The notes beneath the pieces were generated by a model. That model searched no databases, was not told where the DNA came from, and worked only from the letters and a program-made list of their open reading frames with translations. The position numbers were made by a program, and so were the translations under genes. DNA of 64,000 nucleotides, taken from the NCBI RefSeq assembly GCF_013315695.1, contig NZ_CP054353.1. The stretch is one strand, 5' to 3'. Below, in pieces: positions 14,321 through 19,810 of the stretch (positions are counted from its first letter, which is position 1; every line of letters starts with the position of its first letter). This DNA is from Escherichia coli (GTDB lineage: Bacteria > Pseudomonadota > Gammaproteobacteria > Enterobacterales > Enterobacteriaceae).

Positions 14321-14342
14321 CGCTTAATGTAAGTCGTAATGA

Positions 14343-14378
14343 CGAAGCCGCCTTTTCAGGCGGCTTCAGCGTTTTTAT
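14343..14378 (+). terminator. Rho-independent terminator after exuT
   Basis: GAAGCCGCC-TTTTCA-GGCGGCTTC hairpin followed by a T-run (GTTTTTATT). Confidence 0.6.
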
Positions 14379-14417
14379 TACCGGAGACGACGCGAAAACG
14401 TCTGTCTATCTACAGTA

Positions 14418-15500
14418 CTAATTGATCGTCGGTAATGACGGGGTAAAGATGACCGACAATTTACCCATATAATATCCCGCCTGTTTTGCCGTCACGTTAA
14501 ATTTGTCGACCACCAGCGTCAGCGGTGTGGGAACACACATCACAGCGTAACGGATGCCTGGAAGCACCACCGGGCGGACACGTTTAAGGTTGATGTTGGT
14601 CCAGACCATGCTCTCATTGTTGCGCACATCAATTTGCCCACCTGATTCCGGGTCATACATTTTGACACGGTAATCAATACGCTCCCCTTCATCCGTTGAG
14701 CTCGCACCCTGACGATAAATCGAAAACTCACCATTACTGCGTCCTGCCGCCGTTCTTCCCTCATCTTTTAGCAAAATTTCATAGCTAAGACCGTTACCGT
14801 TAAAGCCATCGTACAGGCACATATCCAACATAGTCAGATCTTGCGCGTAGTTGTTGCCGTTAACGCTGCCTGTTGGATGCAAATCCAGTTGTACGCGTGG
14901 CGTGGCGTGGGCGAACTCCGGGAAGAACACGTCGATATGGTTGGGATCGAGAACGTTAAGCACGATATCAGCATAATAATCAGTGCTTGGCTCGTTAAAA
15001 TGCAGTTTGACCGCACCTTCCCAAACGCCGCCAATCGGTAGTTTTTTCATCTCCGCCTGTTCAAGATAGAGCGTTAAGGGCTTTGCCTCAGCAAGGTATT
15101 GCACACCACCCTTACCACAGAAGTAACCAGTACCGTCCGTTAAGGACAGCTGCGTGCTCCATCCCTTACATGAATTGTTGTCCCAAACCTCTGCATTCAT
15201 ATACCCTTTCAATTTAACAGGCCAGCGCATGCCGCTGCGTTTTTCTGTCAAATAAACCTGCACACTCGTACTATTACCTGATGACGTACAGCTCTGCTGC
15301 AAATCAGGAAAACTGCATTGATAAATTGACCATGTTGTACCGTGACTAACCACTGGAGGATCTTCACGATTCCAGATGTAATAGTTAGCGCGGCCATTGG
15401 CTAAGTTGTAGGTCACTTCAGCAGTGACATTTTTCGCCGCTTGCGTAACATTGATGCCAGTTATTAGACATAATAATAAAATCCATAATCGACTTCTCAT
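14418..15500 (-). CDS. Fimbrial tip adhesin / minor subunit (CfaE/CooD-like), class 5 fimbriae
   Basis: 360-aa ORF with signal peptide (MRSRLWILLLCLITGINVTQA), last gene of the operon, overlapping the usher stop by 4 bp; size and position match CfaE-type adhesins. Confidence 0.6.
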   Translation of the reverse strand: MRSRLWILLLCLITGINVTQAAKNVTAEVTYNLANGRANYYIWNREDPPVVSHGTTWSIYQCSFPDLQQSCTSSGNSTSVQVYLTEKRSGMRWPVKLKGYMNAEVWDNNSCKGWSTQLSLTDGTGYFCGKGGVQYLAEAKPLTLYLEQAEMKKLPIGGVWEGAVKLHFNEPSTDYYADIVLNVLDPNHIDVFFPEFAHATPRVQLDLHPTGSVNGNNYAQDLTMLDMCLYDGFNGNGLSYEILLKDEGRTAAGRSNGEFSIYRQGASSTDEGERIDYRVKMYDPESGGQIDVRNNESMVWTNINLKRVRPVVLPGIRYAVMCVPTPLTLVVDKFNVTAKQAGYYMGKLSVIFTPSLPTIN

Positions 15501-18271: not shown

Positions 18272-18772
18272 TTAGAGAGCCTGGGACAGATAAATGCTAA
18301 CTACGCCACGGTAGATACCCGTTTCCAGAACACCTTTGGTAGCCTGGGAAAACATCAGTGGTTTAGCCAGCGAACCGTTAGTTAACGCATCGGAAGCAAA
18401 GATTTTCGTTGCGGTAAAAGTGGTTGCCGCATCAGCTTTAATCTCTTCACCCCCCCAAGTTACGGTCAGCGGAACAATTTTGCTGGCGTCCAGGCTCTGA
18501 ACCAGTTGCGCAGGCGAAACTAACTGCATTTTCACGTCTTTGGTCGTGTCATTTGACCAGATTTTAGTCATTAACTGGTAAGATTGCAGACCCTGACCTG
18601 GCAGATATTGCATTTCTACTGCCTTCGGCAGTGCAGTATTATCGGTCTGCGTCATATCCAGAGCAGCATCAACGTTAGCAGTAACAGTGATATCTTTTTG
18701 TACTGCTAATGCAGAACCTGCAACGGAAAACATTGCCGCTACCAGAAGAGATTTTGCGAATACCTTTTTCAT
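18272..18772 (-). CDS. Major fimbrial subunit, CFA/I-CS1 class (CfaB/CooA-like)
   Basis: 166-aa ORF; signal peptide then mature N-terminus VQKDITVTANVDA..ALP resembling CfaB VEKNITVTASVDP..ALP (recalled from memory); internal TWGG and C-terminal GVVS motifs. Confidence 0.65.
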   Translation of the reverse strand: MKKVFAKSLLVAAMFSVAGSALAVQKDITVTANVDAALDMTQTDNTALPKAVEMQYLPGQGLQSYQLMTKIWSNDTTKDVKMQLVSPAQLVQSLDASKIVPLTVTWGGEEIKADAATTFTATKIFASDALTNGSLAKPLMFSQATKGVLETGIYRGVVSIYLSQAL

Positions 18773-18801
18773 TACTATTCCTTGGTTTATTACAATGATA
18801 A

Positions 18802-19518
18802 TTAATGGACCGCCAGCTCAAACTCGCCATTGTCCTTGGTGATCCAGTTATTATATTTGACAACGATTTTATCGTAGCCAGATATGCTTTCTAAAACTCT
18901 TTCCTGACCAGGGAAAATGTTTTTATTTACGGTCTGTGTTCTGCACTCCGCAGAACCACTATTTTTACAATAGGCAATGGTTAATATCTTCAGACGTTGA
19001 TTGCCATTATTGATTAGCTTTTTATCGGCGTTAATATCTAACTTTGCCACAGGCTGCTGAGGTGGCACGCTGACAACAATCCCCCAAATTAAGTTAACCG
19101 TTAATTGCATGGAGAGATCTTTTTTATTATCTGTTGCATCATCAATGCTGGGTACAGCTTCAAATTTAACCCGATAGTTTTTTTCTTTTTGCTCAGGTTC
19201 CATTGCCACAAAACGCACGGTTTTGCTACTACCGCCAGGCAAAGCAAATTTGGGCGGCATTATCACAAGTTGGTTTGCATCGCCTGAAGTTACTTCGATT
19301 TCTTTTTCTTGTGGTGTTGATGGATTATCGATACGAAATACGGTTGCCTTTATATATTGGACTTCATTCGTTTTCGATATTACACGAACACTTCCTTCTC
19401 CCTGACTGTTTATAGATACAGACATAGGATATACAGTCATATTAGATTGTGCGAAAAATGATGTGCACAGAAGTAAGACAGGCCCGAGCCGTAATAATCG
19501 ATTAATTTTCGCCACCAT
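18802..19518 (-). CDS. Periplasmic fimbrial chaperone (CfaA/CooB-like)
   Basis: 238-aa ORF with signal peptide, first gene of the operon; size and order (chaperone, major subunit, usher, adhesin) match class 5 operons. Confidence 0.6.
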   Translation of the reverse strand: MVAKINRLLRLGPVLLLCTSFFAQSNMTVYPMSVSINSQGEGSVRVISKTNEVQYIKATVFRIDNPSTPQEKEIEVTSGDANQLVIMPPKFALPGGSSKTVRFVAMEPEQKEKNYRVKFEAVPSIDDATDNKKDLSMQLTVNLIWGIVVSVPPQQPVAKLDINADKKLINNGNQRLKILTIAYCKNSGSAECRTQTVNKNIFPGQERVLESISGYDKIVVKYNNWITKDNGEFELAVH

Positions 19519-19810
19519 TTAATCAGTTTTACATTATTTCATAAAAAGTTGGCGCATTAGAAATCATACTATTTTTCAAGTCAACACAAAAAAGCATCTT
19601 TAGATAAAATTATTTATTATCAAAAAAAATACAACCTACTGAAAAATATGTTTTTTCACAATTCAACATAATCAATTTTAGGAATATATTAATATTCATA
19701 ACATCAATAAATAATATTATTTCAATCATGCGATTTATATTTTAACAATGGCATACGCATGCATAAAGTGGTATGATAACTTTGTCCGCATTCCACTCCT
19801 GGAGACGCAT
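19519..19810. promoter_or_regulatory. Very AT-rich control region holding the fimbrial operon promoter (minus) and the exuR promoter (plus)
   Basis: About 290 bp, largely A/T with long A- and T-tracts, between the divergent chaperone and exuR starts. Confidence 0.5.

Follow-up and report, generated by a model that had tools for sequence, protein, structure and literature searches.

The segment considered here is the interval between the hexuronate genes exuT and exuR in a 64,000-nucleotide stretch of Escherichia coli DNA (assembly GCF_013315695.1, contig NZ_CP054353.1), hereafter called the window. Four co-oriented open reading frames (ORFs) on the minus strand fill this gap and encode, in this order, a chaperone, a major pilin, an usher and a tip adhesin. 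All four are intact; the ORF list agrees with the order and sizes given in the initial annotation of this DNA, and the RefSeq annotation shows the same order. The RefSeq annotation was read from NZ_LR898874.1 (E. coli MSB1_4I), a record 100% identical to the window in which the same genes are annotated. The locus is very probably the chromosomal "CS1-like" or Eaf (eafABCD) alpha-fimbrial operon of Escherichia, complete and apparently functional. Its genes are as follows.

18802..19518, minus strand: periplasmic chaperone, 238 amino acids (aa), CfaA-like (phmmer, NCBIfam).
18272..18772, minus strand: major pilin, 166 aa, CS1-type (phmmer, Pfam).
15497..18181, minus strand: usher, 894 aa from the ATG at 18181 (900 aa from the alternative ATG at 18199), overlapping the start of the adhesin gene by 4 nucleotides (nt).
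14418..15500, minus strand: tip adhesin, 360 aa, CfaE/CblD family, WP_001571954.1 (phmmer, family profile, Pfam, AlphaFold2 model).

The chaperone matches chains of the CfaA type by phmmer (7.7e-34 for 4ncd to 8.6e-31; CfaA 2.3e-31), with FimC reaching merely 1e-3, and the NCBIfam model TcfA at 5.9e-39. Among the PDB chains, the major pilin is matched by CfaB (4.3e-22) as well as by the CS17 pilin and CooA of CS1; its Pfam family is Fimbrial_CS1 (1.4e-23). The N-terminal donor strand of the mature pilin, VQKDITVTANVD, aligns to the donor strand of CfaB, VEKNITVTASVD, which supports the resemblance to CfaB proposed earlier for this N-terminus. Three Pfam domains, all of the TcfC/CooC type, are reported for the usher (TcfC E-set, 2.5e-20; Usher_TcfC, 6.4e-60; CooC_C, 2.4e-05), which also matches NCBIfam TcfC at 1.3e-162 with 543 bits vs. 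an equivalog cut-off of 1,428. No relative of the usher was found in the PDB by sequence. Comparison with plasmids by tblastn covered 96% of its length, at 30.1% identity to CsdC, 28.7–29.0% to CfaC and 28.4% to CsuC. The usher of 900 aa described initially is present as an ORF, but translation probably starts at the second ATG, 18181 (894 aa), because AGGA lies 6 nt upstream of it, 18199 has no Shine-Dalgarno sequence and RefSeq uses 18181. N-terminal hydrophobic leaders, judged by reading the sequences and not by a signal-peptide predictor, are present on all four proteins, and to that extent the earlier call of signal peptides holds. The best NCBIfam models for the four proteins are TcfA, CblA/TcfB, TcfC and TcfD.

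The adhesin matches CfaE at 4.5e-28 by phmmer alone and at 2e-64 as a family profile, and its Pfam match to CblD reaches 3.7e-99. An AlphaFold2 model was obtained from 67 homologues (predicted local distance difference test, pLDDT, 88.4; predicted template modelling score, pTM, 0.80). Its best solved match in Foldseek is CfaE (2hb0), aligned over both domains with a template modelling (TM) score of 0.74–0.75 across 362 columns at 26% identity, while FimH-type adhesins reach a TM score of merely 0.21–0.26. According to this predicted fold, the fourth gene encodes a genuine two-domain tip adhesin, composed of an adhesin domain and a pilin domain. Across the operon the best matches are thus CfaA, CfaB, CfaE and TcfC and not members of the Fim or Pap families, as the initial annotation had anticipated.

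The operon belongs, by its sequence, to the alpha-fimbriae, or alternate chaperone-usher clade (CFA/I-CS1-Tcf-Cbl), because it combines a TcfC/CooC usher, a CS1-type pilin, a CfaA-type chaperone and a two-domain CfaE/CblD subunit with the corresponding gene order. The order of alpha-fimbriae operons (chaperone, major subunit, usher, minor subunit) is found both in the ORFs and in the RefSeq annotation.

The site of the operon is delimited by the following elements.

13022..14320, plus strand: exuT, hexuronate transporter, left flank (RefSeq).
14344..14367, plus strand: exuT terminator hairpin, the last element shared with K-12 before the indel (terminator-like scan; alignment of the K-12 spacer).
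14367..19764, no strand: segment of about 5.4 kb present in the window, with about 30 bp in its place in K-12 (presence/absence polymorphism; K-12 alignment).
19811..20587, plus strand: exuR, hexuronate repressor, right flank (RefSeq start 19811).

Alignment to K-12 MG1655 bears out the statement that exuT and exuR are neighbours in that strain: they lie 129 bp apart and the operon genes are missing there. Homology to K-12 ends at about 14366–14367, after the exuT terminator hairpin, and restarts at about 19765 (AAAGTGGTAT). The insert has a G+C content of 44.4% vs. 54.6% for exuT, about 54% for the flanks and 50.1% for the whole window, so it was rightly described as more AT-rich than its surroundings. 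This AT-rich character resides mainly in the chaperone gene (39.6% G+C) and in the spacer that separates it from exuR (25.3% G+C).

The operon was regarded initially as an uncharted chromosomal copy worth characterising. This view could not be maintained, since the operon at exuT–exuR is already known: RefSeq annotates it, and at least three papers give it a name. A "CS1-like" operon, ECSE_3375-3378, was described in the commensal strain SE11 by Oshima et al. 2008 (PMC2608844). It is conserved in E24377A, HS, ATCC 8739, 536 and SMS-3-5 with 71–100% protein identity and is missing from MG1655, O157 Sakai, CFT073 and UTI89 (PMC2608844). In E. coli W, Archer et al. 2011 placed eafABCD (E. coli alpha-type fimbria) between exuT and exuR (PMC3032704). 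CS1-like is named as a chaperone-usher fimbrial type in PMC6033998 and PMC4552563, both of which cite Wurpel et al. 2013 (PMC3559732). The type is B1-associated (PMC4552563), its transcripts were detected and were higher in non-O157 Shiga toxin-producing E. coli (STEC) associated with haemolytic uraemic syndrome (HUS) (PMC6033998), and it was used as a polymerase chain reaction marker in isolates from urinary tract infections (PMC8249706). A literature search on the eafA-D names returned unrelated acronyms only, and the searchable library yielded no paper on the variation of the adhesin domain described below. What the present analysis adds is the rare adhesin-domain allele of the window and the cassette-like variation of this domain, and nothing else is new.

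The CS1-like/eafABCD operons of E. coli (SE11; also W, HS, E24377A, ATCC 8739, 536 and SMS-3-5) have the same four genes, in the same order and at the same site, as the window. They differ from it only in the allele. The window usher is 95% identical both to that of strain M1, which carries the common allele, and to cluster P0090 (10,122 members), the grouping being by identity and not by a tree. Protein identities to M1 are 96% for the pilin, 84% for the chaperone and 71% overall for the adhesin, and the promoter spacer is about 65% (merely 63–69%) identical to that of the common allele.

The population was surveyed with the 5.5-kb segment as query against 5,426 complete E. coli genomes. The segment is present in 1,919 of them (35%), with at least 80% of the query covered in 1,889, and an intact empty junction of the K-12 type was found in 3,504. 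The two states together account for 5,423 genomes, and the polymorphism is therefore a clean two-state one. Each of the 1,923 places of the operon is chromosomal (1,923/1,923). A genuine plasmid copy was considered and rejected: the single 95% plasmid match inspected is a 354-kb record with the chromosomal exuT/exuR context, and a second plasmid record, in the 95–99% band, was not inspected. The inspected record, NZ_MG591698.1 (353,691 bp, labelled as a plasmid of E. coli PN43), has the gene order uxaCA-exuT-operon-exuR-yqjA-mzrA. This context belongs to the core chromosome, and the record is probably a chromosomal fragment deposited as a plasmid.

Several points weigh against the reading of a complete and functional CS1-like/Eaf operon. 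Every NCBIfam match lies under its equivalog cut-off, so that these matches do not imply orthology to Tcf or Cbl. The CS1-like/Eaf pilus is widespread in E. coli (35% of complete genomes), has been described as B1-associated and shows higher expression in STEC linked to HUS. No functional study of it, and no experiment demonstrating production of the pili, was found in the searchable literature. The silencing and trans activation proposed below are drawn from base composition only, and the saturation of synonymous sites in the adhesin domain means that dN/dS cannot show positive selection there. The operon is missing from 65% of E. coli genomes and is damaged in several others: the chaperone gene is frameshifted in sequence type 648 (ST648; locus L014, 10369–11084) and truncated in O121:H19 FWSEC0006 (L015, 10360–10998), a deletion in AR_0061 (L016, 5972–9658) fuses usher and adhesin, such fusions being found also as the 1,228–1,234-aa proteins P0091–P0093, and IS3 insertions break the operon in SK6988 and MB06173. 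These independent inactivating lesions suggest that the operon is dispensable.

Taken with the absence of a linked activator, the very AT-rich promoter region and the judgement of the E. coli W paper that the eaf cluster is unlikely to function in colonisation (PMC3032704), the lesions and the missing operons could be read as the traces of a cryptic, decaying relic. Such a relic would be transcriptionally silent and heading for loss, and its intactness in the window would be functionally meaningless. We consider this improbable. Strong purifying selection acts on the usher, on the major pilin and on the adhesin's pilin domain, with a pN/pS ratio (nonsynonymous to synonymous proportions of differences, estimated according to Nei and Gojobori) of 0.08–0.09. 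The operon is kept at the same site in E. albertii, Escherichia sp. E4742 and E. coli, all four genes of the window are intact, and transcripts were detected and differentially expressed in STEC (PMC6033998). The E. coli W cluster was stated to be without a tip adhesin gene (PMC3032704). The present analysis bears on this statement, which is hard to reconcile with the window, because sequence and predicted fold both identify the product of the fourth gene here as a two-domain homologue of CfaE. Judged from the window allele alone, the homologous fourth gene of W is probably a two-domain CfaE homologue too.

An old origin of the CS1-like/Eaf locus has to be weighed against its arrival as a recently acquired genomic island. 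The 44.4% G+C of the insert against about 54% in the flanks, the clean presence/absence polymorphism and the empty site of K-12 agree with recent acquisition, and the AT-richness had led to the suggestion of horizontal acquisition in the initial annotation. However, no integrase, transposase or tRNA gene is annotated or seen as an ORF inside the insert or in its immediate flanks, and no target-site duplication was seen on reading the junctions, a repeat search not having been run. E. albertii and Escherichia sp. E4742 also carry the operon between exuT and exuR. Among the E. coli operon alleles the usher dS (synonymous divergence) rises to 0.49 vs. 0.09 for exuT; over the comparisons with other E. 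coli, exuT dS is 0.006–0.115, and the ExuT protein is 100% identical to that of the sister strains L004, L014, L017 and L018. The occupation of the same site in other Escherichia, the lack of annotated mobility genes, the lack of a visible duplication and the greater divergence of the operon alleles than of the flanking genes argue for an old locus, either with repeated loss or with exchange through the conserved flanks. A recent island is accordingly unlikely; the lower G+C and the empty K-12 site stand as observed, and horizontal acquisition, if it occurred, is at best ancient.

The relatives of the operon outside Escherichia occupy other positions in the genome. The Tcf operon of Salmonella Typhi (tcfABCD) and the cable pilus operon of Burkholderia cenocepacia (cblBACD) are chromosomal alpha-fimbriae with the same gene order as the window, but the identities are 36% to CblC and 29–35% to TcfD, the scores are far below the equivalog cut-offs and the genomic sites are different. 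The closest operon outside Escherichia is the alpha-fimbrial operon of the Klebsiella oxytoca group, Citrobacter, Kluyvera and Enterobacter mori (usher 54%, adhesin 39–45% identical, same order). It is located between lysR and ygeA (Asp/Glu racemase), not between exuT and exuR, at about 3980–9120 of each locus. In three of these four genera the lysR–ygeA operons lie a few genes from the pectin-degradation genes kdgF-togMNAB-ogl, and in Citrobacter kduI/kduD are near. Genes of hexuronate or pectin catabolism are thus found in the vicinity of both sites. A link of the pilus to such catabolism was considered and discarded as coincidence: the lysR–ygeA site is conserved, the pectin genes probably reflect regional synteny and the site in Buttiauxella is different. 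The alpha-fimbrial operon of Buttiauxella sp. (L012), next to moeA/moeB, contains two adhesin genes of the CfaE/CblD family, at 5809–6954 and 8001–9134, with a gap of about 1 kb between them.

Comparison with the class 5 fimbriae of enterotoxigenic E. coli (ETEC), namely CFA/I (cfaABCE), CS1 (cooBACD), CS2, CS4, CS14, CS17, CS19 and PCFO71, reveals the chaperone-pilin-usher-adhesin order in common with the window, as well as a CfaA-like chaperone, a near-identical CS1-type donor strand of the pilin and a two-domain adhesin with the CfaE fold. The ETEC operons are plasmid-borne; the window operon is chromosomal, without linked or known dependence on Rns/CfaD, and the CS1-like operon has been reported in commensals and several pathotypes (PMC2608844, PMC3032704). 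Differences also concern the receptor pocket. In class 5 adhesins R67 and R181 are shared and form this pocket, and the R181A substitution abolishes binding (PMC7573445). In the family alignment extended by CfaE, the counterpart of R67 is W57 (W, F, Y or S in 19/19 Escherichia alleles) and that of H140 is Y126. The hairpin with R181/R182 is shorter in the window allele and reads HFNEPSTD, with no arginine or lysine; the alignment of this loop is uncertain, yet no arginine is available. The TEKRS motif is common to the window adhesin and CfaE. Without the two arginines on which ETEC class 5 adhesins rely, the allele probably has a receptor different from theirs.

The designation of the locus as a class 5 operon therefore holds for the CFA/I-CS1 type of assembly and for the gene order. 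Judged by its proteins, the operon is not an ETEC class 5 operon in the strict sense (subclasses 5a, 5b and 5c; eight members), because the usher is 28–30% identical to CfaC, CsdC and CsuC, the adhesin is 26% identical to CfaE and the receptor arginines are missing. It is closer to the chromosomal operons of Klebsiella, Citrobacter and Kluyvera and to CblC. The reading as a true ETEC-type class 5 colonisation factor would make it a CFA/I- or CS1-like pilus that is encoded on the chromosome and shares the receptor chemistry of the class. This reading could be argued from the agreement in gene order and gene sizes, the donor strand of the pilin, near-identical to that of CfaB, and the CfaE fold and TEKRS motif of the adhesin, but is very unlikely in view of the low identity of the usher to CfaC, CsdC and CsuC and of the adhesin to CfaE, the lack of arginines that are needed for binding throughout the class (PMC7573445), the finding of no operon on a genuine plasmid among the records inspected, its occurrence in commensals (PMC2608844, PMC3032704) and the existence of closer relatives among the chromosomal operons of Klebsiella, Citrobacter, Kluyvera and Enterobacter.

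Variation of the CS1-like/Eaf operon within Escherichia is distributed unevenly along the adhesin gene, in and next to which the following parts could be distinguished.

14952..15500, minus strand: hypervariable cassette, signal peptide and N-terminal adhesin (receptor-binding) domain, residues 1–183 (identity collapse, class counts, pN).
14421..14951, minus strand: conserved C-terminal pilin domain of the adhesin, residues 184–360 (invariance across alleles).
14370..14430, no strand: small replaced block just 3' of the adhesin stop codon, with about 40 mismatches in 60 nt vs. L014, L017 and L019, the backbones being 98–100% identical elsewhere.

Entropy and invariance were computed over 19 full-length Escherichia adhesin clusters. 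In the C-terminal pilin domain 133 of the 177 positions are invariant and the mean entropy is 0.19 bits. The mean entropy of the N-terminal domain is 1.02 bits, with peaks at residues 100–141, 47–67 and 167–173, which are the stretches aligned with the CfaE pocket residues H140, R67 and R181. When eight further alleles derived from loci were added beside that of the window, the N-terminal domain formed at least 20 classes at 90% aa identity (pairwise median 60%, minimum 50%), and the C-terminal domain of the same extended set a single class at 90% (pairwise median 93%).

The cassette can be seen directly in ST648, SCU-301 and 2D, whose backbones are 98–100% identical to the window. Their identity falls to 52–72% over 14940–15500, and it falls also in the 60-nt block after the adhesin stop codon. 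In SCU-301 the chaperone, pilin and usher have the same RefSeq accessions as in the window strain, and the adhesin is different. The adhesin domain has a mean pN of 0.223 and a pS of 0.69, which is saturated, so that dS is undefined; the corresponding values are 0.045 and 0.51 for the adhesin pilin domain, 0.025 and 0.33 for the usher and 0.003 and 0.14 for exuT. Owing to the saturated synonymous sites, dN/dS was rejected as a proof that the adhesin domain is under positive selection, and only the pN contrast is given. The pN/pS contrasts between domains and genes indicate, as far as sequence comparison goes, that the adhesin-domain alleles are old and have been moved by recombination.

The frequencies of the adhesin-domain alleles were determined at a threshold of at least 99% nucleotide identity in the same 5,426 complete genomes.

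M1 type (common): 1,304 genomes.
ST648 type: 84 genomes.
Strain 317 type: 35 genomes.
O121 type: 18 genomes.
Window type (rare): 5 genomes.
SCU-301 type: 2 genomes.

The nearest neighbour of the window adhesin domain is the E. albertii type, 75% identical to it. This pattern of variation, a conserved machinery with a domain that is swapped like a cassette, indicates that diversification acts on the adhesin domain. On this basis it is a serious possibility, put forward tentatively, that the exuT–exuR fimbrial locus is an exchange site for adhesin domains. At least 20 deeply diverged domains would be kept in Escherichia and shuffled by homologous recombination onto one conserved pilus machinery, so that strains would differ in receptor specificity or antigenic type. 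In that case the specificity carried by the window would be a rare one, independent of the arginine pocket found in ETEC adhesins.

Gene content, family, fold, site, population frequency and the pattern of variation are results of the analysis, whereas pilus assembly, receptor binding and the control of expression are inferred. By homology to CFA/I, assembly of the CS1-like/Eaf pilus could proceed as follows. All four products would be exported by Sec, and the CfaA-like chaperone would hold the subunits by donor-strand complementation. The two-domain tip adhesin would initiate assembly at the TcfC/CooC-type usher in the outer membrane, after which many copies of the CS1-type major pilin would be added by donor-strand exchange via the N-terminal strand VQKDITVTANVD. 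At the tip of the pilus, the N-terminal domain of the adhesin, a recombining hypervariable cassette present in the window as a rare allele, would bind the receptor.

The following elements lie in the non-coding parts of the operon and its spacer to exuR.

19519..19810 (292 bp), no strand: AT-rich spacer from which the chaperone gene and exuR diverge, presumed to contain the fimbrial promoter, 25% G+C.
19765..19782, plus strand: ExuR-operator-like sequence AAAGTGGTATGATAACTT just 5' of exuR, 15/18 identical to AAAGTTGTATGACAAGTT in the uxaC–exuT spacer (12773–12790).
18224..18244, minus strand: G+C-rich stem-loop with a U-rich run behind it, located in the gap from pilin to usher gene; putatively an attenuator or a stabiliser of the mRNA (terminator-like scan).

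Promoter-like hexamers were found on the minus strand of the spacer, at 19745..19716 and 19645..19616, in the scan for terminator- and promoter-like elements. No regulator gene adjoins the operon and none is annotated across the 44 kb of the window downstream. Lacking a regulator gene of its own and having a promoter region with a G+C content of 25%, the operon is probably silenced in an H-NS-like manner under laboratory conditions and activated by factors encoded elsewhere. The stem-loop probably keeps the pilin transcript in excess over the usher and adhesin transcript; for an 81-nt segment that includes its 8-bp stem, the calculated folding energy is -16.7 kcal/mol (z = -1.9). The ExuR-operator-like sequence is kept in all operon-bearing loci compared and lies about 250 bp from the chaperone start; it more likely serves autoregulation of exuR.

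Phase variation of the Pap or fim type was considered and set aside, because no GATC site was seen on reading the spacer sequence (19519–19810); an inverted-repeat search for an invertible element was not run. A tract of eight A residues in the spacer (A8, 19622–19629) is A7 in five related backbones (L014, L017, L019, L004 and L018) and is missing from the common allele. Slipped-strand switching at this A8/A7 tract was likewise discarded, a single homopolymer indel being too little for such a claim.

Some minor observations concern the neighbouring genes. The mechanically called ORF of exuT extends 40 codons further upstream (window 12902–13021) and gives 472 vs. 432 aa; the RefSeq start at 13022 was accepted, and the extra length probably arises from the way in which ORFs are called. 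The approximately 50 bp directly 5' of exuR (window 19765–19810 vs. 3600–3652 of the K-12 locus L002) reads AAAGTGGTATGATAACTTTGTCCGCATTCCACTCC in operon-bearing alleles and AAAGTGGTATAACAAATATAGTCTGCCGTATCATGCC in empty ones, and the promoter/operator context of exuR may therefore differ between the two states. Farther along the window, the aga (N-acetylgalactosamine/galactosamine) cluster is interrupted by an IS1A element at about 59104–59801 (record 635117–635814), whose insertion leaves a partial gene for a phosphotransferase system IIB component (agaB), annotated as a pseudogene.

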